The position numbers and the translations under genes are program-made. DNA of 64,000 bases from Antedon mediterranea (lineage: Eukaryota; Animalia; Echinodermata), in assembly GCF_964355755.1 (NCBI RefSeq), contig NC_092677.1, positions 5,788,101 to 5,852,100 of the forward strand, in the 5' to 3' direction. The first letter of the stretch is position 1. Every line of letters starts with the position of its first letter. Below, in pieces: positions 687-55,411 of this stretch. Under the pieces are notes generated by a model. It made no database searches, was not told where the DNA came from, and saw nothing but the letters and a program-made list of their open reading frames with translations.

Positions 687-905
687 TATACATTTATACG
701 TTTTATATTAGAATGTGACGCAATTCATATATTTTTGCGATGCCACTTCTTTTTAATAAAACATAATTGAATTGAATAGAACTCAGAGTATGTTCTATTG
801 TAGTATAATAGTACTTATACTTCCAATATTTTATTTATTTTTATTTTGCTTTAATCCAGTGGCTATGAATTAAAGTTTGGCTCAAACATTCAGATTGCTA
901 CTCAC

Positions 906-16100: not shown

Positions 16101-16745
16101 ACACAATTTGTTCATCTATCAACTAAAAGTACCGTAGGCCTATATCTATATATTACGTTAATATACATTACTAATAAACAAAGTTAGTAACAATTAATAA
16201 TTAACAGAATGTATTTCAGTTTGTTGAATTTAGGACATTATGATTTTATATTGAATTATATATATATTTTAAATTAATAAATACGGTAAACTAGTAATGT
16301 GATCCTAACAATGATGGTATACGTTTTTCAGAATTTAACGCCTAGGCCTACTTATTAAAATTATTCTTTTGAATTGATGAGCCTACCCAAACTATAGGTT
16401 AACATCAACGAACAACTTGTAATACTAGTATTGTTTCTTTAGTAAATTGTCTGTGATCTGATTGAAGACAGGTCTACACAACAGTATCTTAGATGTAAAA
16501 CACCAACAAATAAATTGAAATCATTATTTTTTATTTAGATAAAACGAATAAGAACAATTCATTGTGAGTATCGAAATCCTCGCTACCAAGAACTAAAAGT
16601 GTCTGCGCTTCCTGCCATTTACAAAGAGCTCAACAAAGTTACTAAAGTAGATAACGGTGCTAGGCCCACGACGACGACAAGAAAGGAACAAGTCAACACG
16701 GATTCGAATGTGGCCAAAAGCATTTATGAAAATATTTCAGAATAA
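10119..16745 (+). CDS. Gene 1: apparently intact IgSF type-I receptor with 5 Ig-like domains, TM, and ITAM plus ITIM tail
   Basis: Exons: SP 10119-10167 (MVLFQATLIFVIHSVV), V 10675-10998, C 11822-12133, V-like 12677-13012, C2 13980-14255, short Ig 14941-15177, TM 15870-15982, tail 16539-16745 (...YQELKVSALPAIYKEL...SIYENISE*). All are GT-AG, phase-compatible and stop-free. A probable non-coding exon donor lies near 9249. Confidence 0.85.
11613..11740 (-). repeat. Helentron/DINE-1-like short interspersed repeat (other copies ~31470-31568, 39335-39425, 40478-40548, 45090-45205, 56338-56445, 60516-61285)
   Basis: Shared layout: ACAAGGCCA..AGTCGCGTG, (GACC/GACA)n microsatellite, ATAGTGA.CTATAGAGTCGCG...CGCGACTAA terminal hairpin. 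The family assignment is inferred from this layout. Confidence 0.65.
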
Positions 16746-21387: not shown

Positions 21388-24300
21388 ATGTCAACATTTG
21401 TGTTTCTGTCCGTACTGTTTCTTATTGAAAATGCAATCGGTAAGTTTTGTTCAGGTGTAAAACAGAGAGAATCCTGCTCGGCATAGTCTCTTGTACATCT
21501 AATATTATTATTACAAAAATACGAATAATGGTTGCTTGGCGAAGATGCGTAAGAAACAAACTATTGCTCTAACTTCACGTAGTAGCTAGCTCAATAAAGA
21601 AATAATTATTCCCATCCTTACTTGAAATAATGCAAATTTAAAAATCTAAGATGTCTTAAATCAAACCGCGTAAAATAACCGCGTTATAATTATATATTAA
21701 TAATATTATATTTATAAAGAATACTAATACATGTACAAATTATATGTTATAAAAATTATGTTATATTGGCTGACCAGTTCCGAAAAAGAGACCATTTTTA
21801 CATAAATATTTTTCTGTTTACTTAAAACAAAAGATTTGGTTACTTCAGTGTGCATAGCTATGTAATTTCTATAGGAGGTGGAGAAGGGAAGAGTGGGCGG
21901 GGATGGGAGGGAGGAGGGGGAGAACGTGCGTGCGAGTGGCAACTGACTGCGAAAGGAAAATTGTATGCAACACAATACCTTATTGTTCATTTAATCATGG
22001 ATCCTTAATCCATGATTTAATGCACATGAGTGCGGCGCGTACATATCGGTGACCATCAAAATACCGAAATTAGTATTTACTGTTCTATGATGATCTATTG
22101 TTCATCATCCGGGTTGTCGTGGCGGACTACATAACACAATGTCCTGGTCTGGTAGTTTGTATTAGTCATTAATTGTTTCTGAATTAGCACTCTAAATTGC
22201 TAATGTGGTGTTTTTATCTCAGATTATTCTATCTATATTTTAGCAATACTATCGATAATTGAAGGTGAAACAGTCACAATTGCTGTTAGAAGTGGTATTC
22301 GCAATGACAAAATACATACGATAAATTGGTTCAAAGGCGAAGAAATAAGTGTAAATCTATTTATCCTTAATTCTGAAGCAAGTAAATCTGGCAGGTTTTC
22401 AATAGTTAATGCCTATGGAGATTTGAGGATACAAAATGTAAGCAGAGAGGATGCAGGGTACTACACAGTTCAAGTTGTTGAAAGTGGCGAGGTATATGTT
22501 GAGACCATGACATATCACCTGAATGTATATTGTAAGCTTTAAAAAATGTTTAATAATTTTTAATTTAGATATTCGAAAATAAGATCATTATACGTGTTTT
22601 TCAACAATCAAATTTCAATTGAAATGAAAACTTTCACTTAAGGATTAAAACAATTAGAAGTTATATTAATATTTTGCTATTTGCAGCATACTATTCACAA
22701 GGTTATTAAAATGATATTTCGTCTTATTCTTATAAGAACATTCCTGTAAATACGATTTATGTGGGAAATATGTGGGAAATTCTTTGCATATCATTTCGTA
22801 TATGGTCTAAATGTTTTGTAAAATTATTTTTTGCAATAACTTAGAAATATTTGTGTAAACATGTACTGTATTTATATTCAATTTTAGTTAGCAAAGATAT
22901 AGATTCACCAATTCTCTGCAATGTGATCACAAAGGACATGAAGAGCGGCATTTTACGTAGTCGGCTAAACTGGTTATGCGCTAAACCGTTGGTCCCATGT
23001 GCAACATGGCCAATGTGCACATTAAAGAACGCAGTACACTCTTTGAACAAGATTAAGGGATCGTCTCCAGATGTGCTGCCAAATTTACCACCAGCAGGAC
23101 CTCTACGGTCTTAGTGAGCTATCCTGGGTGTATAACACTAAAAAAGAAACCAACATCACAAAAGATAAAACAAGTACGCTTATTACTATAATTATGTCCT
23201 TCTTTTCTATCGCAGATACGGATTTTCCAACTCTTACATCGAACATTAAAGATAATACCGATAGCAAGTATATCATATTTTACTGTCAATGGAGTAACAT
23301 ATATCCCATAATGAAACCGAATGTTACGTTGATACATAATGGAAATACACTTGACACCAACACAATCAAATACAAAGGAAGTAATAATGGAGTAAATAGG
23401 GTTGTTTATCAAGTGTCTGAAAACGATTATGGAAACTATGCTTGTCGTGTCACTGTTGAAACATCAGTTGGAATTATGAGCAAGACGAGCAATGTCGAAG
23501 AAATTACGCAAAGTAAGTATTTAAACCATGTTTTTTTTTAAATTATTATTGTGAATAGGAATTTGAAAAGTTTTATTTACACTAAGTCTTCTTACATAGT
23601 AAACATTGTTCTTTTTTCAGGTGCTCTGGATTCAATTACCTCACCAACGGGCATATCGACTACAGTTTTAATATTAGCTGTTGAAACATCAGTTGGCATT
23701 ATGAGCAAGACGAGCAATGTCGAAGAAATTACGCAAAGTAAGTGTTTACAATCAGGCATTTGTTACATAGAAACCATGTTTTTTTTTATTATAATTGTGA
23801 ATAGGAATTTGAAAGGTTTTATTTTCATTAACTCTTTTTACATAGTAAACATTGTTTTTTTTGCAGGTGCTCTGGATTCAACCTCATCAACGGGCATATC
23901 GACTACAGTTTTAATATTAGCTGTCATCGCTTCATTCGCCATTGGTTCTTTCCTGACTTTTGTAGCAGCAGGGTTTCTTTATGCAAGTATAGAGATAAAT
24001 TATGTGAATTGATTAAAACGGCCAGAATTTATTTAGTAACATCAAAATTTGAAAAATACCTCTATGGAAGTACTACATACATATCAAAACAAAAAAGATA
24101 CAGAAACAACAAAATAAAAAGACACCGTGTTTGATAAACTGGCACTACTCATGCTTCTAGATATCGGTGGCGAATCCAGGATTTTGAAAATGGCGGCGGG
24201 GGGGGGGGGGGGGGGTTTTGCAGGGTCTAAAAGTAGTGAAATGAAGTTCTTAACTTAATTTGATGTACTATCCTATGCATTACACATTGTGAAAGCTAGA

Positions 24301-25059
24301 GGTGGCCCGGGCCGGGAGGCTGGGTAGGCAGCTCCACACCCCACCCCTTGAACCCCTCCTGGATAAGTGACGCGATGAATTATTGTAACACAATACATTT
24401 ACTTTAAAGCACAATGCAGATTATTACAATAAGATCTAAAGAGGCAACATATAACATCAGTAGAACATTTCATATTGGGATTGAGCGAGTTGCTTCTAAA
24501 AAACACGTTTCCTCATCACTGCGATCACACGTGAGAATATGAGTACCAAGACTTCTCAAATAATTCATCGATTGCAAACTCTTTACAACAAACTGACGTA
24601 CTAGTTGCTGGAGTATAGAAACTGTTAGAGTTATAAAAGCAAATCAAGATCCTTAGCGATAAATTAATATGATATAATATGCCAACTGTTTGTACTAAGA
24701 AACTTGATTTGGCCGATTTTTGTTGTGAACTTTACAATATTTAGTTAAAAGTAATAAGGTTGCAATGCAAATTGTTATTGAAATTACAACCTAAAAATAC
24801 GATTTGATTAGTTAACAATCCAATGTTAAAATCAGTTGTTATCGCTTCAATCGATCTTAGACTAAGTTGCTAATTATGATTGTGAAACAATGGTATTAAA
24901 TAAAATCGACAGCAATAAGAAACTTACTTTCACTCAAATGATACATTATTGTTTTTACAGAAAAGACGATTAGGTCTGAAAGAAAACAAGTCTAAAGATA
25001 ATGACCTCCAATATCAAGACATGCAATATGCGTCACCCCTTCTCATTACCAGGAGCTAA
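21388..25059 (+). CDS. Gene 3: SP-V-C-(chimeric stalk)-TM-tail receptor with a GC donor after TM and a frameshifted tail
   Basis: SP 21388-21439, V 22244-22531, C 23216-23512, chimeric exon 23621-23737, TM 23867-23982 (donor GCAAGT), tail 24961-25059 KRRLGLKENKSKDNDLQYQDMQYASPLLITRS*. Confidence 0.72.
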
Positions 25060-28274: not shown

Positions 28275-30239
28275 ATGTCAACATTTGTGTTTCTGTCTCT
28301 ACTGTTTCTTATTGAAAACACAATCGGTAAGTTTTTTTCAGGTGTACAACGGAAAGACCATTGTTCTATAACTATTTGTTGTGTTTACTTTAATAAAAAA
28401 AAAATTCAGTAAATAAAGATTTGGTTACTTCAGTGTACATATCTATATATCAGGGAAGGAAGAGGGGAGAGGGAAGGGAGAGGGGGAGAGGGGGAGAAGG
28501 AAGGGAGTGGGGCGGGAAGAGTGGGGAGAGGGGAGGAGAAGAATGAGAAAAAGGGGAAGAGAAGAATGAGAAAAGGAGGAGTAGGAGAGCGTTCGTGCGG
28601 GTGGCAACTGAATAAAACAAGGAAATTGTTATGCAGCACAATACATTCTTCAAACTAGGCATAATAATAATTGTGTTCGTCTTATTGAATGTACATAATA
28701 GGAATGCGGCTCTTATATATCGATGACCATAGAAATACCGAAAACTGTTCTATGATATATTGTTAATCATCCAGGTTCTAGATAAATATTCATAACACAA
28801 TTATATTCATAACGTGAACTTATTTACAAATATTAACTTATTCTTAATCATAATTCGTTCAAACCAGAACTTGATATCTATAGCCATTAATTGTTTCCAA
28901 TTTAGCATTCTATATTGCTAATTCTATTTATATTTTAGCCTCAGATGTTATACTATCTGTAGTAGAAGGTAATTCAATCACAATTCCTGGAGGTGGTATT
29001 CGCATTGACAAGATACATGCAGTAAGTTGGTTCAAAGGTGAAAAAGCATATCAATATCAACAAGGTATCGTTCATTCTAACAATCGTCAATCTGGCAGAT
29101 TTTCGATCGTTAATTCCTATGGAGATTTGATGATACAGAATGTAAGTAGAGATGATGCAGGGTACTACACTGTTCAAGTTATTGAAAGTGGCGAGGAACT
29201 TAGCGAGACCAACACATATCACCTGGATGTATATTGTAAGAATAAAAAAATGTTTAATAATATTAGATCTTTAATTTAGATATTCTAAAATTAGATAAGT
29301 ACGGTATATGTTTTTTCAACATTTACAATACCAATCATATTTCAATAAATGAAAACATTCACTTAAGGATTGAAACAAATTAATATTACATTGATAATTC
29401 TTATTATTTCTTCCTATTCTTATAAGAACATTCGTGTTCTGTTTTTAAAATACTTACATTTTGTGTAACACTATGTTTTGTAATAACTTACATACATTCA
29501 TGTCAACATGTAAAACATTTATATATTAGATCTTAGTTAGCAGAGATATATATTTACCGATTCTCTGACAGTTAATGCATGCAATGTGATCACAAAAGAC
29601 ATATAGAGAGAGGAATAGCGCAGTCCGCTAATTGAGGCAACATTTAACATCAGTAGAATATTTCATATTGAGATTGAGCGAGTTGCTTCTAAAAACTATC
29701 ACACATGAGAATACGAGTACCACGACCTCTCAAATAAATTCATTCTCGATTGCAAACTCGTTACAAACAAATACCGTACTAGTTGCTGGAGTATAGGAAC
29801 TATGAGACTTATAAAAGCAAACATTTAATATGATATAATATGCCAACTGTTTGTACTAAGAAATTTGATTTGGCCGATTTTTGTTGTGAACTTTACAATA
29901 TTTAGTTAAATGTAATAAGATTGCAATGCAAATTGTTATTGGAATTACAACCTAAAAATACGATTTGATTAGTTTAACAATCCAATGTCAAAATCAGTTG
30001 TTATCGCTTCAATCGATCTTAGACTAAATTGCTAATTATGATTGTGAAACAATGGTATTAAATAAAATCGACAGCAATAAGAAACTTACTTTCACTCAAA
30101 TAATACATTATTGTTTTTGCAGAAAAGACGAGTAGGTCTGAAAGAAAACAAGTCTAAAGATAATGAACTTCAATATCAAGACATGCAATATGCGTCACCT
30201 CCTTCTCATTACCAGGAACTAAAACCCAGTAAGAAATAG
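28275..30239 (+). CDS. Gene 4: SP-V-tail unit lacking C and TM exons; predicted secreted single-V protein (or pseudogene)
   Basis: SP 28275-28326, V 28939-29235, tail exon 30123-30239 (KRRVGLKENKSKDNELQYQDMQYASPPSHYQELKPSKK*). A deletion junction at ~29632 fuses the V-C intron to the post-TM intron. The V-to-tail splice creates T|AA, a stop codon. Confidence 0.7.
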
Positions 30240-33071: not shown

Positions 33072-36000
33072 ATGGCGAGAATTGTATGCATATTTCTTTC
33101 ATTACTGATTTTATTCGAAAGCGCTATAGGTAAGGGTTGTCAGCGATAAAAATCGCTTAACAAATGTGCACCTCCTCAAAACGTTGATTGATAAAATCAA
33201 TACTTTTGCATTATGATTTTGATATAGTATACACTTGTGTGTACAAGACTATTTTTTTAAATAAAATAATAGGATAATATTTTGTATTTATAATGTAAAT
33301 TTCTTTACTGGACACCAGATGATGTGCATTTATTATAAACTATAATGCAATGGTTTTTATGCATTTAGGTATGTTTAGTAATCCATATTTTAAAAAGGGT
33401 GCTTCCACAGACTACTTTGTGATTGTACGGTAGTATGTTTTTTTTTATGTAAACTATTTAATTATTATTTTATTATTATTTCATTTTTGCTGTGATTCAT
33501 AAATACAGATTAGTTTATAATATTAATAATAATAATAATAAATAATTTATATCTAAGCCTCGGATCGTATAAAAGAACTGTCAATAATTGAAGATGAACA
33601 AATCACAATCTATGCTGGAGGTGGCATTCCCATTGATAAAATACACGCGGTAATTTGGTTCAGAGGTAAAGAAGTATATGGAGAAAGACAAATTGTTAAC
33701 TCTGTTAGTCAACTTCAAAATGGAAAATTTTCAATCGGAAAAGTGTATGGGGATTTGATCATACAATATGTTGATATAACAGATGAAGGATATTACACAG
33801 TTCAGGTTAATGACGAGGAAACGGCTCGGACCACAACGTATCACCTGGATGTGTATTGTGAGTTATTTCCTAACCATTTCTATACATTAATGTAATAGCT
33901 TTTATAGAAGATGAACTTTTTAGTTTATTTATGCTAGTACAGTGATACTTTATAAAATAATTATATGAAATGAAAGTAATGCGATTTTCTATTCAGTACA
34001 CTCTGATAACATAATGAACTAGGTAGTGTTATTCATATTTTTTACTTTGAATATCTTCTGGTCTAAGTAAGCATGTATTTTAAAACTAACTCTTCCCAGT
34101 ATATTTAAATAATACTATCACTATCATCTTTACAGATATGGATTCTCCAAATTTCATAGCATCAATCGATAATAGCAATAGCCACTATGCATTCTACTGT
34201 ATATGGGGTAACATATATCCCGAAATGGAACCGAAAGTAACATGGACACTTAATGGAAATTTATTAAATACATCAACGCCTAAATACAGTGTAACAGATG
34301 AAGGGAAACGTTGGAACAAACTGGTTATTTTTGAAAATATGTCTGAGAATGATTTTGGGAACTACTCTTGTCGTATTACTGTAAACCTGGATGAGGGTAC
34401 TATGGAAAAGACAAGCAATTTAGAAGAAATATGGCAAGCATCTAGTTCTGGTAAGTAAAACATAACATTTGGTTCTAAAGCCTTGTCTACACTATCAAAC
34501 TTTATGGGACACCAAAATATAATGTGCCCATATCTGGACATGATTATGTCACCTCACTACCATAGTAGTATTTTTTGTCAAATTAGTTTGTGTGCAGATT
34601 AGACAGAGCTGGAACCTAGTTCAGATCTATACCGTATATCATAGCAATAACAAAAGCGTAAGCGCAGTAGCGTCCTGTAAAGATATAGAGCCTAAGTGTA
34701 TTATGTTGTTTTGAATTAATACTAGATACTTTCAACGGTTCATTTAGATTCATCGTAATTAGGAAAGTTTCGTGATGAGTCATATTATAAGTAAGGAAAT
34801 GGTGATAGAAAGTAAGCACAGAATTGAACTGTCGCCACTAAAAAGTTATATTTATGTAAATATTTGTTTCATTTCAGCTGCTCCATCTATAGAGACGTTT
34901 TCGGTAATCGAAGGAGACCGAACCGTAATTCCAGCTAGAGTCGATGTGCCCATAAACACAATACAATCAATAACTTGGTACAAATTTAAATCACCACAAA
35001 CAAACTATACAATTGTTAGTTTAACAAATCGAACCAATGGCCGCTTCTCAATTGATGGAACTGGCAAAAACTACGGTGATTTGATCATACAACATGCTGA
35101 TAGAGAAGATGCGCGTTATTACACATGTCAGATTTTACAAAATAGAAATTCTAGAGAGAAGACCATTACGTATTATTTAGATTTATACTGTAAGTTTAGT
35201 ATATCCTAGTGTATAGATATTTTGGCGATTAGACCTAACGTTATAATATTATTATAAAAACGTTTGAAGCATGGATAAAAAGATCTCATGTAGCTGACTC
35301 TATCACTTATGATATAATAATATTATACACATAATTATGAAATGAGGTAAATAATTCCATAAGAGGAAAAACTACTTACGTTTGATAAATAACTATATAA
35401 ATAAAACCCAATACAATTTCCAACAATAATACAACACACAAGATCGCCTACTCTTAAATTCAGAATGAGTTGTGTTATTCCATTTTTATTTCAGATCTAG
35501 TTTCTCCAACTCTCACAACATTCACTGAAAACAGTCCTACTGGTAACAAATATGGTTTCTACTGCATATGGTTTAAAATGAACCCAGAGATGGAGCCGTA
35601 CGTAGCATGGCTACATAATGGACATATATTAAAAACCTCAACGACTAAGTACAGTGTGATAAAGGACGAAGAAAGGAGCATACAAACACTCATTATTCTG
35701 GAAATGACTGAAAATGATGTTGGAGAATATGCGTGTCGTATTACGATTGAAACAAAATTAGGAATGCCTAATATGAGTAAAACAAGCACCATCGAATACG
35801 TTACGATAAGTAAGTAGGCCAACCCCTTTTTACTACCCTTGTCACACTTCTTTCTGTTACCTGCAATAACTTTAATATCTAAAACTAACTAATTTTCTTA
35901 GCATTTTGTTCTGTTTCAGGTGCGTTGGATTCACCTTCGTCAACAGGCCTATCAAGTACATTAATAGGAGGCTTAGCTACAGTGACAGTTGTTTGTATAC

Positions 36001-36716
36001 TTGTCTCTATCCTTACTTGTGTAATAGCACGTGTTATGTATGTAAGTATTTCAAATTATACAGGAAATAAAAACACGGAGATGAATTAAATTCAACAAAT
36101 GTACTGCATAGTAGAACTTTGACTTTGAATGATAATGTTAATGATGACGATGACTATGACACAATGATGACGATGACGGTGACTATGACACGATGGTGAT
36201 GATGATGATTACGATGATAATAATGGTGCATAATGACCATCACGTGCAACTGGAACTTACATTTTTGTCTCATTTAGTATTACGTTTGCTTGGCCTAAGC
36301 ATTACGTTTTAGATTGATTGGTATTATATTGCTCGTATCATTTTGTGACTTGAAAGAAAATACATTAGTCATTCAGTCGGTTCTGTTTATGATTTGAGAG
36401 TTATATAATAACTTAATGACACTGAATAAAAACAACAGAAAGTCTAAACTTTTACTTTCAATCAATATTAAAACACAGGAATTATTTAAAAAAATTTATA
36501 TTCTTTTGATAGGAAAGACGAGTAAAGCAAATTAATTCTAAACGTAAAAGTCCTCAATACCAAGACCTGCAATTTATGCCACGCCCTGACCAGTACCAAG
36601 AGCTTACTATAGATTCTAGAATACACGACGGTGTCACCAACAAAAATAAAACAGATAGAAAAATCTCGGAAACGAGTTCGAAGGTTAACGTTGTTTATGA
36701 AGACATACCTAATTAA
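33072..36716 (+). CDS. Gene 5: apparently intact IgSF receptor, V-C-V-C, TM, ITAM plus ITIM tail
   Basis: SP 33072-33129 (MARIVCIFLSLLILFESAI), V 33558-33857, C 34136-34450, V 34878-35189, C 35495-35809, TM 35920-36041, tail 36513-36716 (...YQDLQFMPRPDQYQEL...VVYEDIPN*). All are phase-compatible. A probable non-coding exon donor lies near 31985. Confidence 0.87.
36130..36225. repeat. Degenerate (GAT/GAC)n microsatellite in the gene 5 TM-tail intron
   Basis: GATGACGATGACTATGAC...GATGATGATGAT read directly. Confidence 0.8.
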
Positions 36717-38367: not shown

Positions 38368-39050
38368 ATGGCAACATATATGTTTTTGCTCTTTCTCATC
38401 CAACAGACGACAGGTAAGATATCATTGTAATAAAGTGAAGAAAATTGATGGGGTGGGGTTGTGAATTGTGTCAGTTTCGCCCCTCGGCCGAAAAAAGTGT
38501 TATTTGTCTAGTATAAAGATATGATACAAGGAATGAAAGTACCTGGAAGGATCTACTACCGTATTCGATATCGACACCGGTGGACCTTTTTGCAGAGTAA
38601 ATTGAAGTGGTGAACTACGATATATCAGTGAATTTTTGACAATATTATGTGTACAGGTATTTAAATATTAATTTCCCACATTGCTTCTGTTACCTACAGA
38701 AAAGAAGAGCATCAGTAGAAATTCATTCTAAACAAGATCTACAATACCAAGATGTGCAACTTTCTTCATTCCCCTCCGTGTACATCGATTCTAACATAGA
38801 CAACGGTGTTATCTATGCAAATACAGAGGCCGGCAATATGTCGGATAGGTGGCCGAAGGAAGACGGAGCCGGCAAAATGCTGGATGCGTGGCCCAAGGAT
38901 GACGTAAGCAGGAACATGGCGGATGAATTGCCAAAGGGCGGCGTTACGGTGAAATTTTCGGATGCGTGGCCAAAGAGCGGCGTTACGGTGAACATGTCGG
39001 ATGCGAGGCCGAATAAGGATGAACTCAATTATGAAGTTGTGAATTATTAG
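38368..39050 (+). pseudogene. Gene 6 relic: SP exon plus an intact tyrosine-motif tail exon, with all Ig and TM exons missing
   Basis: SP 38368-38413 (MATYMFLLFLIQQTT, gtaag). Tail 38700-39050 reads KRRASVEIHSKQDLQYQDVQLSSFPSVYIDS...VIYAN...LNYEVVNY*. Only 286 bp separate them and the phases are incompatible. Confidence 0.72.
38832..39026 (+). repeat. Coding 39-bp (13-aa) tandem repeat, 5 copies
   Basis: GNMSDRWPKEDGA / GKMLDAWPKDDVS / RNMADELPKGGVT / VKFSDAWPKSGVT / VNMSDARPNKDEL. Confidence 0.88.
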
Positions 39051-41310: not shown

Positions 41311-44300
41311 ATGGCAACTTACCTGTTTCTGCTGTTCCTTATTCAACAAACGATAGGTAAGATAGTGCAAGGTTTGATATGGGAGTAGGGTGTGGTTGAT
41401 GCTCTTCTCAAAGTCAAATGAAATATATCATGGGTTCGTCTACATAGTCTAAATAGTTCGTCACTGGGTAGACGAAACCATGATATATTTTTATTTCACT
41501 TTATTTTAATACAAAAATACATAGAGAACTGGACTATTGTGTGTAAAATGCCAGTTTTACCCGACAGCGGAGTAATCGCGTATCGCGTCGACGAACAGAT
41601 AGCATTATCCTATTATAATTATTTTAACAAATTATTTTATTTTTAGTCTCTCATGTTCTACTATTGAACGACGATAAAACGTTCTTTTAATACAATAAGT
41701 TGTGTTTGTTATATTATCTGATCTTATCTTATCAAATATTACTATCATTAAGATGATCGAAATTAACTTTCTTTTTAGCTTCACAGACTAGACGTCTGCC
41801 GATAATCGAAGGTGAGCAACTATTAGTGATCCCAGCTTTATCTTGTCTGTCACCTGCTGAAGTAGATTCGACCAGTTGGTTCAATGGTACAGGAACACAT
41901 CCAACTAAATTACTCGTTAATTCTGCTAATAATTCTAAATTTGGCAATTTCCTAATCAATGACATTTATGGCGATTTGATTATACAACGCGTAAAGAGGG
42001 AGGATGCTGGGCTTTACACTTCACATGTAGTTGCAATTGACGAAGTAAACGGTTACACAAATACGTATCATTTAGAAATATACTGTAAGTTATTACGGGT
42101 TTTATTGTTAGTAGCAACAGTAGTTACATAATGTAAAAGATTATCTAAGGTGATATAACTATTAAACAGGTATTGTCCCCAAAAAAAACATGAACAATTA
42201 ATATTAAATTAAATCAGACTTTGAATAGGTTACTTTGTAGTTTTAATAAAGTTAATCCCTTCCGTAAAAAAAATAAACAAACAAAAATAATGTTGTTTGA
42301 TATAAAATGACAAAATAAATGGTCAAATTCAACCAAAAATTCATTGGCTGGCAGCCAATTTGACTATTTTGTTTTAAAATTACAGTTTTTTCATGTAAAT
42401 ATATATATTTTTTTCGATTCAATTTTTGTTCAAAGTGGCTAACTATGTGACATAAAATGGCATATTCAACAAACAAATATTTAATTTAATTATTAGTTTT
42501 ATTATAGTTTATTAAACTATTTACTATTAGACCATATCTAGGCAAACTGTAGTAATCTAGGAAGTGTGGCTTCGAGGCAACGTAAACAATTTCATGTTTA
42601 GTACATTCTAACTTCTGGAAATGACAATTACAAATCTAAAAAGTTTGTATGATGAAAATGTAAAATGCTTATAGGCCTATTCTTCTATTAGCCTATTTTT
42701 ACTGGCGTCATTTATTCTAAACCCACTTTTTTCTCTATCCAAAGATATTGATTTTCCAACTCTCACATCCTACACTGAAAACAACAGTAGTGAGATCAAC
42801 AATGTTATATTTCACTGCGAATGGGGTGAAATTTATCCCCAAAACGATCCGAACATAACGTGGATACACAATGGAAAAACTCTTGACATAGACACGAAAA
42901 CGACCAAATACAATGTGATCACAAAAGAGAAAACAAGTACACTGGTTTTTCATCAATTTTCTGACACCGACTTTGGGAACTATGCTTGTCGTATCACCGT
43001 TGAAACAAAGAAAGGCAATATGACCAAGACGAGTAATTTAGAGGAGATTGGGCCGCAAAAAGCGGTTTCTAGTAAGTTACCGGTATAAATACAATTTCCT
43101 ATGGGAAGCGACTGTAGGGCCTACAAATTATTATAAAATAATATGAATAATGTGTGAAGGCAATAATAATCATTTTTATGTTATAGATGTTGATGAAGAC
43201 ACTAGTAGCAATAAAAGCATCAGAAAAAGATCCCTAGGCCTGTGGTTCATTGTGTTTGTGTGTGCGACGGTATTTATTGTTTGCGTTATTGGCGTTTTAT
43301 TGTCAATTACCAACAGAAAGAGTAAGAATGTAATTTATTTCTATTTCATATTTAAAAAAATGATATTGTGCACTTCCAAATTATTGAATTAACTCTTAAA
43401 TCTACTTTAAAAAAAATTAAATAAAGCAAGAATCTATACTAAAGGGGGCGCTATGTCTTTAATAAATGTATCATTCTTTCAATATGTAACGAGATAGTTT
43501 TCAGTAGAGTTTCAATGTTAAAAGCAACTCTTTAGTTTCAAGTGCTGCATTAACATATTGGTACCACATTTCAACTAACGTGTGCAATACGCATTACATT
43601 GTCACTAGTCTATAGAGGGCGATCTATATTTAATACTACCAGAGCCGGCCATATAAAGAGTTACGACATTGAAAATTAGAAGCCATTTTTGTGTCAAAGA
43701 ATTCGCACGCTGAGGGCGCGCGCGTCTCTTTTGTATAGCGTTTTCCTGTAGTTCCATGCATTATTTTTAGATTTTGTTGTCAATGAAATAACGCTTAGAT
43801 TCCGTTTTTATTTTAGTAAATAATGTTATTAATGGTATTAATTTGGTAACATATATATATTGTGTCTATAATAACAAAAGAATAAATGCTAGGGCCTACA
43901 TGCAAGTCAGGATACATCAAAGCATGAACCAATACAAAAAACACACAAATTCACCCCTCTTTTATACAGTATATGGCTCTCTGTGTGTTTTTGACACAAA
44001 CTTTCAGAGACTCGTTCATCATTTCATTTGTAATAATTTGCCTTTATTATTTTAATATTGTTCATACCTATTCAATATATTAACAAATATATCCACGACA
44101 CTTTATTATTTTATTTAGTCATCAAAGCATGCATTATGAATTGAAAATATTACATAATTGTTATTAATGGGACGTAGTTATGGGATGTTTTGTTCCAAAA
44201 TCAATCAATCGAACGTTATAATGTACTAGCGTACGCGCGCGCAATATTCTTTGGCGCAAGTGGTTCTGTACGCTGTGCACGTCGATATTCCACCGTAAAA

Positions 44301-44980
44301 TGTGCAATTACATTTTTTTAATATAAGAAAAAGTTTAAAGTAATTTCTTGCTCCTATACTTTACATGCATTAACGGAGACAAGTTTGACACAAATTGATC
44401 TGCATATCACGTGACTTAAATCCAATGTCGTAACTCTTTATATATATGGCTCTGAATACTACTGTACCTGATAGAGAGTGTGCTATATTTTAAAACCGAA
44501 TAGTTCAGTTCAACTAATAATGCTGTACGTAATTTGTGAATACTGTTTCAATTATTACAAAAACAATTACGAATTGAATTTTTTTAATGATACATTAATT
44601 GTTAAATGGTTTGTTGGTGGCGATACTGAGGCGGTTACTTATATCACCCAGTAGGGCCTACTGCCAGAGGCAACTGATCATTTTCTAAATAATCCCTAAA
44701 TCAGTGAAAAGGCAGATATATGTTGTATGTCACCCAATAACGTTTTATTATTGTGTCTATAGGGAAAAGAGATAGCAGAAATTTATATCAAACATCAGAA
44801 TTTACTTCAAGCATTACAGGAGGCCCGGACAACGGAGATAATTTACCGGTACCTCCATCATACCTAGACGTTACCGAACATGTCAATATTCCGGATGTAT
44901 GTGATGGCACTACTATGGCAACTATTGAAACAGAAACTATTTCAGTAAATTGTTTAGTGTATGATGAAATTCCAAACTGA
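41311..44980 (+). CDS. Gene 7: apparently intact IgSF receptor, V-C, distinct TM, ITIM-type tail without ITAM
   Basis: SP 41311-41356 (MATYLFLLFLIQQTI), V 41779-42084, C 42745-43071, TM 43187-43321 (LWFIVFVCATVFIVCVIGVLLSI, phase 1), tail 44763-44980 (...NLYQT...PPSYLDV...LVYDEIPN*). Confidence 0.85.
43640..44454. mobile_element. Non-autonomous hAT-like element in a gene 7 intron
   Basis: Imperfect TIR CAGAGCC....ATATAAAGAGTTACGACATTG, with an 8-bp TSD AATACTAC at 43632-43639 and 44455-44462. Confidence 0.85.
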
Positions 44981-45539
44981 TTTATTTAAAACTAGTTATA
45001 CGCATGCTCGGTCCTTTTCGATTCTATTAGCCTAAATACATTACATTTGCAAAAATACGTATAAATTCTACTCAGCGTACGCCAAAAGTAACAAGGCCAA
45101 CAGCCATAAGTCGCGTGATAGTGATACCGGACCGACAGACAGACCGACAGACCGACCGACCGACATAATAAACTATAGAGTCGCCGCGCGTCCACGCGAC
45201 TAAAAATGCTAGCGGGAACCATAACCATTATATAACCAGGACCTACTAAACAACGTCGATGTCGCCGTACGTTTGGCTATGTAGGCCTACAACTGTTCGA
45301 GATTAAGTTCTTTATGGGTACAGCATTCATAGATATAGAACCTCACTTTATAGTCTATCTCGTAAATATACCGTAAAATCTAATAATAAACTTTATTTAT
45401 CATGATAGTCGAGATCCATGATTATGAAGTAAATCCTTCAGATAACGTTAGCATACAATATGAAATACTCAGTAGTTCTGAACAGCCGGTTCAAGCACTC
45501 ATACGAGACAAGCCTAGCTAGGATATAATAAGAACAAGT

Positions 45540-47125
45540 CTTAAAGGGCTACTGAAAGACACAAGCGAACTATGCTGTTTTCTAACTAATAGTGATATAT
45601 TATATTAAAAATAAAAGTAAACTTTTAATAATGCAAAAATTAACATTCTTAGACCGAATAATTTGTTTGTCTTATTTCGGAGAAAAGTTTTTTTTTATCT
45701 AAGTAGGAAGGTGTCGGCCAAAACATTAGTGTCGCAAACAGTACGGCAGTTAAAACAAAATCATTTGCATTGTAATTTAAATGATCACTAACTCAGAGTA
45801 GATTAGTAAACAATGGTGTACTTATTAACGGTAATGATACACTTTTACTTTCACTCCATATTGCATTATTGCTATTTTTCTTACAGAAAAGACGAATAAA
45901 AGAAATCCATATTCTTCTTTCTTATTCTGTCTTATTCTTTCTTATTTCTTCATTTCCATTCATCATACATATTCATAAACATACATAAAAAAGAAACAAA
46001 GAGAAAAAAAGAATGGAAAGGGGGAATCTCGAAAGCATAGATTTATAGAAGAAGAAGCTAACTTGCTTTTTACTTTAAATTAATACAGACTATAAAATAT
46101 AAACAATTTAAAAAAAGCTTTTTTTCCTTAAGCAATATCGTTTAAATAATGATTATAATTATACTCCAGGAATAATTGATTGTTTTTTTTAAATCATGCA
46201 ATTATGAAAAATGTAATAAAAAAGAAAACATATACATGTGACTAACTGTTACGTTGCTCCGGTTTCTACTGTAAAGCTCAGTCTACTTATTAAACTTTAT
46301 GTGACAAGAAAATGTGATGTGCCCATATATGGACATTATGATGTCATTTCACTACAATATTTGGGCATATCACTACTATATTATTTAGGAACTACATTTT
46401 AATCAAACTAGTTTGATAGTGTAGACAGAGCTTAAAACAAGCTAACGTGTATTAGAATGTTCGTCCCAACACATGCGTTTTGTATGGTGTCCCAGTGTGT
46501 GTATTCTGCAGAGTTTTGCTATGCATGTAAAACGGGTATTTGTTCTCACTTTAATGTCATACAAAGTACAATTTATGTTACTGGAGGGCAGCGCAAAAAG
46601 CCAAGACTGGTATATAAGGTATATAAAAATTACCGGAACATCAAAATAATTTGATTACCCCTTCCGGACCAGCAGAGACAAGAAAGACCGGGAAATCTGA
46701 AACTTAATTTGATGCCTCTCGGTATCCCAACATGCAACGGTACGACCGACCACCGCCCTCCGCGACACAACATTATCTTTTATTGTGCCTATGAAAAATG
46801 TTGTTATCTTCATATAAAAAGTGTATCTATAATAACATTAGGCCATTATGTGCTTAGAGAACCGTTGCTTTTTCAAGTTTAGTCTAGATTTCAATTGGTT
46901 GTGTATAATAATATGTACATAATTATAAATATTATAAAGATTATAAAGATGTTGATAGTTACTAATTATTAATATCATTTATCTAATAAGTGTCAATCTT
47001 TAAAACATTGCAATATTTGTATTATTACTTATATTTGGTTGATTGATATGGGAGTTTTAAACATTTCCAGTTCCGGTTATTTTTGTTTAGGCCTACCAAA
47101 TACGACATTAAAAAATTGTTCTTCT
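45540..47125 (+). pseudogene. Relic 3' end of a gene-8-like paralog (post-TM intron, truncated tail exon from 45887, 3' flank)
   Basis: TTCTTACAG|AAAAGACGAATAAAAGAAATCCAT matches the gene 8 tail start (61364) and then breaks off into unrelated sequence. The flanks are colinear with ~60285-62850. Confidence 0.7.
46275..46432. mobile_element. Short Harbinger-like MITE family (copies also ~34479-34610, 37735-37833, 39208-39332, 61858-62011)
   Basis: TIR approximately AGCTCTGTCTACACTATCAAACT, a shared internal GATGTGCCCATAT.TGGACAT segment, and TAA on both flanks of this copy. Confidence 0.7.
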
Positions 47126-50100: not shown

Positions 50101-50941
50101 GGACATTATCGATGTGACAATGACTATTACGACGGCGACTTTTATCGACGGTTCACCAAGTTGGTAACATCAGAAGTCGCAAAAATGTTAACATTAATAA
50201 CAAGTGAACCATAACTCCTATTTATAGATATGGCAACATATTACCTGTTCTTGATATTTCTTTGTCAACCGACGATAGGTAAGATTAATTGAGAAAAGTT
50301 TATTATTATGTTTGAATCAGTTATTATTATTAGTCAAGGGAAAAATGGCAAATAGCTTCCTACTTTCCAGGAGTTTTATGTTAGTTAAGTTATCAGAGAG
50401 TCTATGTTGTTTTTGAAAACTCTGTAACATGACCACAGTCCTGATTTTGCTTAGAGTTATCGTTTTTAAGATCAAATTGATATGCTTTATTTGTAGTCTC
50501 AGGTGTAACACAATTGTCGATAATCGAAGGCGAAACTACACAAACCAACAGTGGTGTTGGTAGTCTATGAGTGCCGCTTACCTGGATAAACCAACATAAG
50601 CCTCTCTCTCCGACGAGAGGTAAACATTACGAAAAGAAGAACATTAATAACATTAATTTTTCCCCACCCCCGTCGGATAATGGATCAGTCCGCCACCAGT
50701 ACGCCCTCAAGTGAGACACACCCACTTATCATCGTCATCATTTCTCAAGACCACCTGCCTGAGGGGACGGTAGGGAGGGCGTTTATCCAGGTAAGCGGCA
50801 CTCATAGACTACCAACACCACTGTTGGTTTGTGTAGTCTATATCGTGCCTAGCTTACCTGGATAAACCAACATAAGCCAGTGTAGCACCGGACTAGAGTC
50901 TAGTCGGAGGCGGGAGGTAAGGTAAACATTGTCATACATAC

Positions 50942-53809
50942 CTAGTGTCTGGGCTTCAAGATTGAAGCCGCCACCGTAGACTGGTTTGCGGAGGTATCCG
51001 ACAGGTAGTGGGATGTGAAAGTGGACTGTGATCGCCACCATGCCGCTTGCAGGATGTCTGGAAGGGGCACCCCAGCAAACAGCGCCCATGAAGCGGCTAT
51101 GCCACGCACTTGGTGCATATGTGCCGGAGGAGGCGTATTTGTGGAGTCGTAACCAGCCCGGATGGCTGCCACGACCCAGTTTGCCAGCGTCGACCGAGCA
51201 GCCGGTCGGAAGGGTGCAACTGTCGATACGAACAGATGTGACGCTGAGACCCGAATGGACTCTGTGCGTTTGATGTAAAACTTTAGTGCCCGCACCGGGC
51301 ACCAAAGTCTGTCTTCCTCAACCCCTGAACATGCAGCAATGGTGGGAATAAACACAGTCGGCGGCGAGAAGTTCAATGTCTGAGATTTTGCAAGGAAATA
51401 TTTTCTAAAAACCAACCGCGCGCCACCCCGTTCAAACCTGATGTGCCCTGGCTCCAGAGAAAGAGCATGCAGTTCACCTCTGCGCTTGCACGAGGCTAGT
51501 GCAATCAAAAAGGCAGTTTTGAGAGTCAGGTTGTAAAGTGATGCCCTACTCAGGGGCTCGAAGGGTGGACGCATAAGAGCGGCTAGGACGACATTGACGT
51601 CCCAACGTGGAATCAGGGCCTTAGTAGGAGGCCGTTCTCGAAACATCCCGCGAAGCAAACTGGAAATTGCAGGGGATGAAGAGATGGTCGAGCCGTCCTT
51701 AAAATTCGGAATTACTGCACCCAAGGCAGACCGATAGCCGGATACGGTGCGAACCTGCAGACCTGACTCAAACAGGTAATGTAGGAAAGCGCAGACCTGG
51801 CCCAAAGTCACTTTCATAGGGTCGGTCTTCTGGCGCTTGCACCATTTGAAAAAGTGTTTTAATCGGCTATTGTAGACAGCAAGAGTGGATTCCCGTCGGG
51901 ATTTCGCCGCGAGGGCGGCCGGGCCATCTGGAATGCCTGAGTCTCTGAAGCGATTCCTGACAATGGCCATACAGTCAGGTCGAGGGATATGAGGTTCGGT
52001 AGAGCAAACCGAGCTCGGCCCTGCGTCAGCAAGTCGTTCCGAATCGGAAGACGTAACGGCTGATCGTACAGAAGGCCTAGTAGCAGTGGAAACCACGGCT
52101 GCCTGGGCCAATACGGCGCTATTAGTAGGACTCGGCATTGATGGCGCTGAATGTGCGTCAGGACCAGTGGCAGTATTGAAAACGGTGGAAAGGCATATGC
52201 CCAAAGGTTGTCCCATGGTATGGACAGGGCATCCACCGCCCACGCATGTGCATCCCGATATCGACTGCAGAACGTCGGGAGCTGCGTGTTGCCTGACGTC
52301 GCAAACAGATCTACATGGGGCCGCCCAAAGTGGTTGAAGATCTGGGTGGCGATTATTGGAAGAAGACGCCATTCCGTAGGACGTAGAAGTGGACGGGACA
52401 GTGCGACCGCCACTATGTTCAGACGACCCGCAATGTGGGCCGCTGACAGTTGGATGTTGTGTCTTATACACCACATTAGCAACGTCCACGTGTGGCAACA
52501 TAGCGTGGGGGACCGTGTACCCCCTTGCCTGTTTATGTATGCCACGACGGTTGTGTTGTCGGAATTGACGAGAACATGGCGATTTGCCAGATGGGGAAGA
52601 AGAGCCTCCAATGAGCGCTCGACTGCCCAAAGTTCGAGCAGGTTGATGTGGGCGCGCGTCTCCTCGGGCGACCAGAGGCCGGAGACGCGAATGTCCGGAG
52701 ACGGAATGTGACCGCCCCAGCCTACTTTGGATGCGTCCGTTTCCACACGGACATCCGGGATTGACCTTTGTATAGGTGTGCCCACAAGTAACCTGTCTTC
52801 CACGAGCCACCATTCGAGATGCGAGATAATGAACGCATTCGTTGGAACCACTTTGTGTAGAGAGTCTGATCTTGGGCGGTATGCTGCCAGAAGGTGCAGA
52901 TGTAGAGGCCGCATCCTTAACCGGCAGAACGGAACGAGGGCGACGAAGCTGGCCAGTGACCCCAAGGTGCGTAGCCAGTCGTATGCCGTCGGAGCCTGAG
53001 CATTGATAAGATGTAGCACTGCAGTTCTTGCCTTGGCCACACGCTCGATGGATGGGCACGCACGGCCCGTAACCAAATTTATTTGGGCTCCGAGATACAG
53101 AGGGTTCTGAGAAGGGAGAAGACATGACTTCTCCTCGTTTATTATGAACCCTGCTTGTTCCGTCACGAGGCGGACAAAAGATAAGCTGCTCAGCAGCTGG
53201 TCCCTGGACTGGGCCACGATCAACCAATCGTCTAAGTACATGAACACTCTGATGCCGTGTTGATGAAAGAACGCCGCCAGGGTTCTCACTAGACGAGTAA
53301 ACACTCGTGGGGCCGTTGAGAGGCCGAACGGCAGAGCTACGAATTGGTATACCTGATCGTGAATGCGGAAGCGCAGCCAACTCTGGTGTTCTTGCGCAAT
53401 AGGCACGTGAAAGTACGCGTCTTTCAAGTCTATTGTCGCTGCCCAGTCCCCTCGTCTTAGCCCCAACAGGATAGATGAGACAGTCTCCATCCTGAACCTG
53501 CGGGGCCGAATGTACCGCTTGTTCAGACTTTTGAGGTTTAGGATGGGTCGCCAATCGCCCGATTTTTTCTGGGCGAGGAAAACGGTGGATTCGTGTCCCG
53601 GGATCGTAAGTTGTTCTTTTTGAACATGCACCACAGCTCCTTTCTGGAGCAGTGCTTCGAGGCCCGTCATGAGCGCATGACTCTTTTCCGGCTCTGACGG
53701 AATCCTCGTGTGCCGGGCACCTCCGCTCACCGGAGGGCTCGAGAATTCGATACAATACCCGTGTGTCACGGTGGAGAGAACCCATCTGTCTGTGGTCAGG
53801 GTCTCCCAA
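50942..53809 (-). CDS. DIRS tyrosine recombinase ORF (YR in the C-terminal ~340 aa; the N-terminal part overlaps pol in another frame)
   Basis: SRRESTLAVYNSRLKHFFKWC (core-binding region), LKTAFLIALASCKRRGELHAL (catalytic R), CPVRAL, HQVRG (HxxR), AAWWRSQSTFTSHY (catalytic Y). Confidence 0.9.
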   Translation of the reverse strand: MGDPDHRQMGSLHRDTRVLYRILEPSGERRCPAHEDSVRAGKESCAHDGPRSTAPERSCGACSKRTTYDPGTRIHRFPRPEKIGRLATHPKPQKSEQAVHSAPQVQDGDCLIYPVGAKTRGLGSDNRLERRVLSRAYCARTPELAALPHSRSGIPIRSSAVRPLNGPTSVYSSSENPGGVLSSTRHQSVHVLRRLVDRGPVQGPAAEQLIFCPPRDGTSRVHNKRGEVMSSPFSEPSVSRSPNKFGYGPCVPIHRACGQGKNCSATSYQCSGSDGIRLATHLGVTGQLRRPRSVLPVKDAASTSAPSGSIPPKIRLSTQSGSNECVHYLASRMVARGRQVTCGHTYTKVNPGCPCGNGRIQSRLGRSHSVSGHSRLRPLVARGDARPHQPARTLGSRALIGGSSSPSGKSPCSRQFRQHNRRGIHKQARGYTVPHAMLPHVDVANVVYKTQHPTVSGPHCGSSEHSGGRTVPSTSTSYGMASSSNNRHPDLQPLWAAPCRSVCDVRQHAAPDVLQSISGCTCVGGGCPVHTMGQPLGICLSTVFNTATGPDAHSAPSMPSPTNSAVLAQAAVVSTATRPSVRSAVTSSDSERLADAGPSSVCSTEPHIPRPDCMAIVRNRFRDSGIPDGPAALAAKSRRESTLAVYNSRLKHFFKWCKRQKTDPMKVTLGQVCAFLHYLFESGLQVRTVSGYRSALGAVIPNFKDGSTISSSPAISSLLRGMFRERPPTKALIPRWDVNVVLAALMRPPFEPLSRASLYNLTLKTAFLIALASCKRRGELHALSLEPGHIRFERGGARLVFRKYFLAKSQTLNFSPPTVFIPTIAACSGVEEDRLWCPVRALKFYIKRTESIRVSASHLFVSTVAPFRPAARSTLANWVVAAIRAGYDSTNTPPPAHMHQVRGIAASWALFAGVPLPDILQAAWWRSQSTFTSHYLSDTSANQSTVAASILKPRH

Positions 53810-53877
53810 ACCCGTGAAAACCGTTTCAAGCGACCCCCCACCTGCCCGCCCTCGCTTGGAGGGACGGGCGCCCCCAA
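51859..53877 (-). CDS. DIRS pol: reverse transcriptase, RNase H and adenine-methyltransferase-like domain
   Basis: VGGRL, WRPILNLK, IDLKDAYFHVP, LPFGLSTAP, YLDD, TDAS..GWG, HINLLEL, SDN, then DLFAT...YAFPPF...PYWPRQPWF. Confidence 0.95.
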   Translation of the reverse strand: MGAPVPPSEGGQVGGRLKRFSRVWETLTTDRWVLSTVTHGYCIEFSSPPVSGGARHTRIPSEPEKSHALMTGLEALLQKGAVVHVQKEQLTIPGHESTVFLAQKKSGDWRPILNLKSLNKRYIRPRRFRMETVSSILLGLRRGDWAATIDLKDAYFHVPIAQEHQSWLRFRIHDQVYQFVALPFGLSTAPRVFTRLVRTLAAFFHQHGIRVFMYLDDWLIVAQSRDQLLSSLSFVRLVTEQAGFIINEEKSCLLPSQNPLYLGAQINLVTGRACPSIERVAKARTAVLHLINAQAPTAYDWLRTLGSLASFVALVPFCRLRMRPLHLHLLAAYRPRSDSLHKVVPTNAFIISHLEWWLVEDRLLVGTPIQRSIPDVRVETDASKVGWGGHIPSPDIRVSGLWSPEETRAHINLLELWAVERSLEALLPHLANRHVLVNSDNTTVVAYINRQGGTRSPTLCCHTWTLLMWCIRHNIQLSAAHIAGRLNIVAVALSRPLLRPTEWRLLPIIATQIFNHFGRPHVDLFATSGNTQLPTFCSRYRDAHAWAVDALSIPWDNLWAYAFPPFSILPLVLTHIQRHQCRVLLIAPYWPRQPWFPLLLGLLYDQPLRLPIRNDLLTQGRARFALPNLISLDLTVWPLSGIASETQAFQMARPPSRRNPDGNPLLLSTIAD

Positions 53878-53881
53878 GCCG

Positions 53882-55411
53882 TCACCGGCGCTTCACATTA
53901 TAATACCGGCGACCACTCCTGTTGGTGGCGCCTCTGCCACCCCTATTTCGCATTCCGCGAGGGGGGTGTGAAGCCTGTCTTGATGTAGAAGCCTGACTTT
54001 GCATAGGCTGAGCCGGTGGCGGCGGGGGAGGCTGCATCTGCTGAGGAGCAGCAGGGACAGGCGGCGGTCGTGCGGCTGTCCTTGAGCGTGAATTGCTAGC
54101 TCGGCGCTTTTGCGGGAAGCGCGCTCTTGTCTCCCGACGAGCTTCCCTCTCACGAGCCCATTTATCCTCCTTTTGTGAGAAGGAGCCAAAGAACAAGTCC
54201 TGCGCCCCGAAGGAGTCAGACGTAGTAAACCTACGGAAATCGGTCGGTGCGATGTCAGTTGCACCCAAGACGTTAACGCGACGGGCCGCGGCCGCAGATA
54301 ATGCGATCGTTGCCTGTTGATCAACAACCAGGCCCATGATCTGCTGTAGTAGAGCTATCACGTCCGAATCGCCCTGGGGCGGATGTTCTGGATCAGCCAG
54401 AAAAGATAGCAAGTACCCGGCCATAGAGGCGGCTCTAAGCGTCTCGCGTGCGGCCCTGTCGACGGACATAAGGACGTCCTCTGTCCGGGATTCCGAAGGC
54501 TTCAAAAAATTAGTCCTGGACGGGTCCAGGTTCTGGTCCTCACGGACCCGTTCCTTCGCTGCCTCCGGGACGCTCGGCGCCGCGATGTACAGTTCGAATT
54601 GTTTCTGCGGCACCGGAAAAGCCGATGACAGGCTATAAGGCATAGGCCTACGAACCTTGGACTCCTTAGCGATCAGCTCCACACGTTCCACAAGTTCTGG
54701 ATCGAGAGGCGTAACCGGGCACGAAGATACCTTCTTAAAGGGCGTGCGTACGCCAAAAGTGGAATACCGCTTAGACGAAGGAGTATGCTTAGGCTCTCGA
54801 TACGTGAAATCGACGCCGAGAAAGGACAGCACCGCGGGGACCGTCCGCATAACTAGCGCCTGCAGACCTTCCTCCCCTGGCCCGGCCTGCTCTCGTAAGC
54901 TATCTCTATCATCGTCAGAGAGCGAGGCCATCGTCCTGTCACTATCGTAGACCCTTTGCCGGACGGACGAACCATCGAAAAACGAGGTCTGCTGTGGGCC
55001 AACATCAATGTATGGAATCTGGGGAGGAGGTCTACTCTGAGAGGGTACCTCAGGCTCATCCCTCGGCAGAGCTCTCACAGCTGCAACAATGGCTTGCAGT
55101 AACCCCGGAGAAATCTCATTCACCCCCGGAACCGCAGAGGCCGCAGCCGGTGCAGGCATATCTGGAAGGCTAACTTCCGGCGCGACGACAGGAGGGCCTG
55201 CCGTATCAACGGTACCCACCTCCGGAGGTGGTACCGCTTCCGTGCGCTCTTTAGGCTTAGGGAGCGATTTGAACTTGGACGGTGTCCAGCGGACACAAAC
55301 ATCGCACGGCGACAACTCGGTACACGTGCGGCAATTTATACACTCCAAGTGGCGGTCCCACTTCACGGTAGAGCGGGGACCCCTACATTTAATACAGTCC
55401 TGCTTAGGCAT
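53882..55411 (-). CDS. DIRS gag-like ORF1
   Basis: 509 aa, first ORF of the element. N-terminal Cys/His cluster (CxxC...HxxCxxC..C.....CxxC), RRVNVL and LFFG motifs, basic Pro/Arg-rich C-terminus. Confidence 0.85.
   Translation of the reverse strand: MPKQDCIKCRGPRSTVKWDRHLECINCRTCTELSPCDVCVRWTPSKFKSLPKPKERTEAVPPPEVGTVDTAGPPVVAPEVSLPDMPAPAAASAVPGVNEISPGLLQAIVAAVRALPRDEPEVPSQSRPPPQIPYIDVGPQQTSFFDGSSVRQRVYDSDRTMASLSDDDRDSLREQAGPGEEGLQALVMRTVPAVLSFLGVDFTYREPKHTPSSKRYSTFGVRTPFKKVSSCPVTPLDPELVERVELIAKESKVRRPMPYSLSSAFPVPQKQFELYIAAPSVPEAAKERVREDQNLDPSRTNFLKPSESRTEDVLMSVDRAARETLRAASMAGYLLSFLADPEHPPQGDSDVIALLQQIMGLVVDQQATIALSAAAARRVNVLGATDIAPTDFRRFTTSDSFGAQDLFFGSFSQKEDKWAREREARRETRARFPQKRRASNSRSRTAARPPPVPAAPQQMQPPPPPPAQPMQSQASTSRQASHPPRGMRNRGGRGATNRSGRRYYNVKRR

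Follow-up and report, generated by a model that had tools for sequence, protein, structure and literature searches.

Tyrosine motifs kept by selection in the tail of a crinoid immunoglobulin-superfamily receptor suggest an on/off receptor of immune type

In this study, the cytoplasmic tail of a crinoid immunoglobulin-superfamily (IgSF) receptor was found to carry three tyrosine motifs that appear to be kept by purifying selection. On balance, the protein is probably a self-contained on/off receptor of immune type, as judged by analogy with ITAM/ITIM receptors. It is encoded by gene 5 of a tandem array of V-plus-C units in a 64,000-nucleotide stretch of the Antedon mediterranea genome (hereafter the window), in which genes 1, 5 and 6 are intact. 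Receptors of this kind would likely switch cells on and off in the manner of vertebrate immune receptors.

Exon mapping in the window showed that gene 5 encodes an intact protein of 541 aa with the layout signal-V-C-V-C-TM-tail (Table 1), which is that of an IgSF type I membrane receptor with a signal peptide, Ig domains, a single TM segment and a tail. Its Ig exons are in phase 1, the TM-to-tail intron is in phase 0, and the tail reads in frame with the TM exon. The tail exon follows an AG acceptor (36511-36512) and ends with a TAA stop at 36716. Pfam recognized V-set (33.6 bits) and I-set (27-29.6 bits) domains, with three of the four Ig domains above the cut-off; no meaningful Pfam match was obtained for the four tails searched. 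The NCBI model P0001 continues past the TM exon into intron sequence and has no tail exon. In contigs from another study of the same species, which we guess to be RNA and which carry neither strand nor expression level, one 180-letter contig contains the splice joint of 35809 with 35920 and that of 36041 with the tail exon; the sides of these joints are 28-29 letters long, just below the 31-letter threshold. The TM-to-tail splice of gene 5 is thus supported by one probable-RNA contig. These contigs also cover part of the TM-to-tail intron, and because P0001 ends in the same intron, tailless gene 5 transcripts may exist as well. Among the differences listed for the contig (12 of 15), the tail of this allele shows four amino-acid changes and two silent ones, none of them in a motif residue.

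Table 1. Positions of receptor exons, tail motifs and neighbouring elements in the window
Feature	Position	Strand	Description
V-type exon of a neighbouring gene	898-1248	-	44% like Anneissia P0119; groups with second V of gene 1
LINE-type element	3570-6311	-	913-aa frame with endonuclease plus RT
Gene 1	10119-16745	+	intact, 617 aa; signal-V-C-V-C-C-TM-tail
Gene 1 tail	16539-16745	+	YQEL-x8-YKEL and SIYENI; present in NCBI P0005
Gene 1 Tyr11	16569-16580	+	YxN
Gene 3 partial duplication	23453-23924		tandem; end of C exon and start of TM exon
Gene 3 tail	24961-25059	+	YQDM, then frameshift by a 1-nt gap ahead of the second Tyr; NCBI P0003
Gene 4 tail	30123-30239	+	YQDM-x8-YQEL, then stop; without terminal motif
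Gene 5 signal-peptide exon	33072-33129	+	ATG to phase-1 donor; NCBI P0001 starts elsewhere
Gene 5 first V-type Ig exon	33558-33857	+	without cysteines
Gene 5 first C/I-type Ig exon	34136-34450	+	100% identical in NCBI P0001 (Antedon mediterranea)
Gene 5 second V-type Ig exon	34878-35189	+	F-strand Cys only; modelled V-set fold
Gene 5 second C/I-type Ig exon	35495-35809	+	joined to TM exon in the 180-letter contig
Gene 5 TM exon	35920-36041	+	hydrophobic core without charged residue; phase-0 donor
Gene 5 cytoplasmic-tail exon	36513-36716	+	67 aa
Gene 5 ITAM-like YxxL-x8-YxxL	36558-36605	+	Tyr16 and Tyr28; YQDL (36558-36569), spacer QFMPRPDQ, YQEL (36594-36605); no acidic residue at -3
Gene 5 terminal ITIM-like VVYEDI	36690-36707	+	Tyr62; broad consensus only
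Orphan second tail exon behind gene 5	38700-39050	+	YQDV; a 12-nt gap has removed the second motif; repeats; LNYEVV at the end
Gene 6	41311-44980	+	intact, 343 aa; phase-1 tail of a different type ending in LVYDEI; identical to NCBI P0004
Decayed tail-exon remnant	45887-45990	+	without motifs
Gene 7 first V exon, two halves	about 50500-50545 and 55903-56154		interrupted by retroelement
Retroelement in gene 7	50550-55900	-	5.3 kb, GC-rich; inverted ends 98% over 177 nt
Gene 7 tail	61364-61564	+	YQDL-x8-YNTT; terminal VDYQNV
Possible RT-element fragment	63178-63765		no Pfam match

The first-pass annotation of this DNA had described the gene 5 motifs, and its coordinates for them are exact. It was also right that the first tyrosine is residue 16 and the spacer eight residues in both gene 1 and gene 5, and that the residues between the motifs diverge strongly (1/8 identical in the spacer and 12/60 over all non-motif positions). 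The relaxed ITAM pattern (YxxL/I-x6-8-YxxL/I) is found in gene 5, gene 1 and four tail copies from the crinoid Anneissia japonica; a relaxed form, YxxL/I-x6-9-YxxL/I, was used for Hydractinia (bioRxiv 10.1101/2022.03.04.482883). The strict consensus has an acidic residue at -3, D/ExxY (PMC5112662), and is found in none of the six tails with a full pair. At the end of the tail, VVYEDI of gene 5 fits the broad ITIM consensus [ILVS]xYxx[IVL] (bioRxiv 10.1101/2022.03.04.482883). The narrow consensus ends in L/V (PMC5112662); genes 5 and 1, with terminal YxxI, lie outside it, and the orphan tail, gene 7, P0148 and the first copy of P0176 lie within it. Two of the four Anneissia copies have Pro at -2 of their terminal motif, which breaks the ITIM consensus. 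As statements of function, the names ITAM and ITIM are here still pattern matches.

Among 214 stop-bounded frames following YAG in the window, 7 showed the ITAM pattern, 11 the terminal ITIM and 4 both; two of these four are real tails and two are minus-strand chance matches (2/212 non-tail frames). The ITAM-plus-ITIM pattern by itself is therefore not very rare in the AT-rich DNA of the window. When the residues of the tail were shuffled, both patterns appeared in 9 of 100,000 trials.

The earlier proposal that the motifs are under purifying selection and are not chance matches was supported. Between gene 1 and gene 5, six of seven motif positions are identical, against 12/60 of the others (Fisher p=0.001), and all three +3 codons differ, silently. 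The tail as a whole evolves close to neutrality, with a dS of 0.74, a dN of 0.65 and a dN/dS of 0.87 (Nei-Gojobori, 67 codons); for the same gene pair, dN/dS was 0.36-0.54 in the V exons and 0.39-0.44 in the C exons, each estimate resting on about 65-105 codons. Under a neutral model set to reproduce the 27% identity observed, all seven motif positions were retained with a probability of about 1e-3. Anneissia japonica belongs to a second crinoid family, Comatulidae. Its P0043, P0148 and both copies of P0176 keep Tyr16, Leu19, Tyr28, Leu31, the eight-residue spacer and a terminal YxxV, with only 22-24% identity to the gene 5 tail. In each of three Anneissia comparisons, the key positions were identical in 4/4 cases versus 4-6 of 27 others. 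Because these Anneissia copies closely resemble one another (P0043/P0148, 63%), they do not count as four independent tests. The two tail copies of P0176 lie in tandem.

Site-wise conservation of the Tyr and +3 positions, which the first-pass annotation had offered as a check, was found in part. In a six-row alignment of genes 5, 1, 4 and 7, P0043 and P0148, the six Tyr/+3 columns had a mean pair identity of 0.84 versus 0.24 for the 61 others (p=8e-5; 0/200,000 permutations), with one column flattered by a gap in gene 7 that masks the loss there; the orphan, gene 3, remnant and gene 6 types were left out of this alignment, and P0176 was not included. When five distinct Antedon tails are compared, none of the tyrosines varies, but pair identity in each of the +3 columns is 0.3, no more than background; Gln17 and Pro25 are as invariant as the tyrosines. 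The full ITAM with both YxxL units is kept in only 2/6 Antedon tails. Across 10 homologous tails, Tyr1 is present in 10/10, Tyr2 at +12 in 9/10, the full YxxL/I-x8-YxxL/I in 6/10, the terminal Yxx[ILV] in 8/10 and the broad ITIM in 6/10. Because the +3 columns vary in Antedon and Anneissia keeps the pair, selection, as read from these alignments, acts on the tyrosines across the tails and on the full ITAM in a single tail lineage (genes 1 and 5 and Anneissia), with repeated losses elsewhere. It is very improbable that the motifs are passively inherited from a common ancestor or are due to chance. Tyr and Leu/Ile codons are common in this AT-rich DNA, chance frames with both patterns do occur, and the motifs were lost in several paralogues; the Anneissia tails nevertheless largely refute such an origin, and the identity contrast between gene 1 and gene 5, the low neutral retention and the six-row contrast also argue against it.

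The cluster is tandem, contains pseudogenes and varies in domain number. For the Ig exons of genes 2, 3 and 4, which are recent duplicates, dN/dS was 0.82-1.07, near 1. In gene 2, a stop interrupts the end of the C exon, and no C or TM exon of gene 4 was found between its V exon at 28941 and its tail. A GT-donor-like sequence directly follows the second YQEL in the tails of gene 3 (25065) and gene 4 (30230), so that a further exon downstream of these tails is conceivable. Gene 7 is broken upstream of its tail by a retroelement in the first V exon and a frameshift in the last C exon. In this retroelement, an RT frame (Pfam RVT_1) overlaps a second frame, which weakly matches an integrase N-terminus, a layout that points to a DIRS-like element. 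At the other end of the window, the grouping of the V-type exon at 898-1248 suggests that gene 1 may be a mosaic of two Ig families.

The tails of the paralogues sort into ITAM plus ITIM, ITAM-like only and ITIM only. Gene 6 and P0007 share another tail type, likewise ending in a broad ITIM; contigs of another organism match the TM and tail regions of gene 6 (43025-45087), indicating a close relative there; the gene 5 tail is not covered by contigs of that organism. The orphan tail contains five WP(K)-type repeats, and no TM exon of its own was found. It may be an alternative last exon of gene 5, by which ITAM plus ITIM would be swapped for ITIM only. Clustered paralogues with activating- and inhibitory-type tails are a trait of paired receptors that is present here; the other trait, near-identical ligand-binding domains, is missing, with a V identity of 32-76% and a best opposing-type pair (second V of genes 5 and 7) at 70%. 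The ITAM-only members, genes 3 and 4, look broken in this assembly.

A mechanism can be proposed from ITAM/ITIM receptors elsewhere. When the N-terminal V domain binds a ligand, receptors would be drawn into clusters, in which Tyr16 and Tyr28 would be phosphorylated by a kinase of the Src family. With their fixed spacing of 12 residues, the two tyrosines would suit a tandem-SH2 kinase of the Syk/ZAP70 kind, and the cell would be activated, for example to phagocytosis in coelomocytes. Tyr62, once phosphorylated, would attenuate this response by drawing in a phosphatase of the SHP or SHIP type. A precedent for one dual tail recruiting both Syk/ZAP70 and SHP-1/2 is FCRL3 (PMC4950983). No adaptor would be needed, since the TM core is uncharged. 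Duplication and loss may have yielded activating-only (gene 4 type), inhibitory-only (gene 7, orphan and gene 6 types) and dual tails.

Two other uses of the motifs have to be considered. The motifs may instead be SH2 docking sites for a phosphatase or adaptor (SHP-2, Grb2, Csk) in an adhesion, developmental or purely inhibitory receptor, which we regard as possible but not probable. PECAM-1 and SIRP-alpha are examples of such receptors. The missing acidic residue at -3 agrees with such docking, as does YxN, labelled Grb2-type (PMC5112662), which occurs at the terminal Tyr in three tails and at a further conserved tyrosine, Tyr11, in gene 1 and 4/4 Anneissia copies, though not in gene 5. The ESM Atlas returned only generic Ig look-alikes of the ectodomain; they include the adhesion proteins JAM, ALCAM and BCAM (scores 0.93-0.94, to be taken as leads only). 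However, two families have retained Leu at +3 of each tyrosine together with a spacer of exactly eight residues, and the fast turnover of the genes, like the division of motif sets among paralogues, is more easily reconciled with recognition receptors than with conserved adhesion genes. It is unlikely that the YxxL units are YxxPhi sorting signals for endocytosis or basolateral targeting rather than phospho-switches. All tail motifs also fit YxxPhi, which describes the YQDM and YQDV variants better than ITAM does, and such units are called endocytic motifs in CEACAM papers (PMC5112662, PMC13278318); yet a sorting signal does not need an exact 12-residue Tyr pair, and that distance is held in nine of the ten homologous tails. 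Phosphorylation-dependent on/off signalling remains our preferred reading of the tail.

The ectodomain raises the question of kinship with CEACAM or CD2/SLAM proteins, which would bring a CEACAM1/CEACAM3-like function (homophilic adhesion or microbial adhesin decoys). We consider true kinship improbable. When the second V of gene 5 was modelled (pLDDT 90.8), CEACAM15, CD84, CEACAM1/6/7/8, CD48 and 2B4 came out on top of the fold search, but CEACAM, CD84, CD48, 2B4 and TIM scored about equally, and CEACAM, SLAM, TIM and CD80 were not separated. A profile of eight V exons placed CEACAM first among PDB sequences, with a best N-domain E of about 1e-8 to 1e-5; nevertheless, CEACAM N domains reached 17-23 bits, about the same as unnamed fish proteins (17-22) and well below family members (74-152). 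Most V exons lack the canonical disulfide, a trait of CEACAM N domains. Several V exons keep the F-strand Cys, and the V of P0007 keeps two Cys. Because Anneissia, gene 1 and the P0007 V retain the F-strand Cys, the disulfide loss, which is the most CEACAM-like feature, is derived. In a V-domain tree of 23 rows, CEACAM nests inside recent Antedon duplicates; its position there therefore does not reflect true descent and is ascribed to a long-branch effect. In addition, CEACAM ITAMs span 3-4 exons with phase-0 introns, whereas the crinoid tail is one exon. With this exon structure the crinoid family does not qualify as CEACAM, and the resemblance of its V domains to CEACAM and CD2-SLAM N domains is weak and is read as mostly convergent. 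It is doubtful that the family is an echinoderm CEACAM/CD2-SLAM branch, in which a deuterostome ancestor had a disulfide-free V plus C and a dual tail that crinoids use via Syk and SHP. If this were true, vertebrates would later have split the ancestral dual tail into paired activating and inhibitory genes, and crinoids would use a dual-tail receptor for microbe or self recognition.

The family was surveyed in the window, in eight NCBI Antedon proteins (P0001-P0007 and P0058, from one 28.6-Mb contig) and in five Anneissia proteins. A tail profile run against 5.8 billion proteins gave four matches among 2211 candidates, all of them crinoid, and none at E 10 against PDB sequences. A V-C profile showed no non-crinoid family members among the matches listed, the best 150 of 2447, which were mostly giant multi-Ig proteins; weaker relatives in other echinoderms may be hidden beyond these. 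Known immune expansions in echinoderms are mostly of TLR, NLR, SRCR and Trf genes. Neither echinoderm Ig receptors with ITAM/ITIM tails nor a published description of this crinoid family was found in the openly accessible literature searched; nothing relevant on echinoderms was found in PMC13358205. In current annotation the dual-tail family is invisible, as its members are named fasciclin-, lachesin-, hemicentin-, NCAM- or CEACAM-like by NCBI and the gene 5 tail is dropped. Judged from its sequences, the family is an undescribed crinoid variant of known receptor logic. ITAM/ITIM tails are known from Ig receptors of a cnidarian, a mollusc, a tunicate and vertebrates, and the crinoid family would fill the echinoderm gap. 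The conserved dual tail also offers a concrete peptide for tests of Syk/SHP signalling in echinoderm coelomocytes.

Several known systems resemble the crinoid family in part. CEACAM1/CEACAM3 and CD2/SLAM proteins are the nearest by sequence and fold, though weakly so (about 20 bits). In common with it, they have an N-terminal V that lacks the usual disulfide, C-type domains behind it, rapid turnover, and both ITIM-bearing and ITAM-like members; unlike in the crinoid, a CEACAM gene carries either an ITAM or an ITIM, spread over several exons, and the family is reported only in jawed vertebrates (PMC5112662, PMC13278318). The Alr genes of Hydractinia are, by description, likewise clustered invertebrate IgSF genes, with V plus I-set domains often without a disulfide, and their tails carry ITAMs in 14 proteins and ITIMs in 2; they differ in a Fn3-like domain, unalignable tails and a demonstrated allorecognition role (bioRxiv 10.1101/2022.03.04.482883). 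The Botryllus fester co-receptors (FcoR) are also an expanded IgSF family with tyrosine motifs that vary between paralogues, and in addition between alleles and splice forms, but they have hemITAMs and pair with Fester genes (PMC12582321); the crinoid tails have the full two-tyrosine spacing, and no partner family was seen in the window. Oyster CgIgIT2 is another invertebrate multi-Ig TM receptor with an ITAM and a reported immune role, but it is a single gene and, as described, has an ITAM only (review PMC11999971). Vertebrate FCRL2/3/5 differ in their FcR-type C2 domains and B-cell expression, and no homology is claimed; like the crinoid receptor, however, they combine an ITAM-like motif and an ITIM in one tail behind an uncharged TM segment (PMC4950983).
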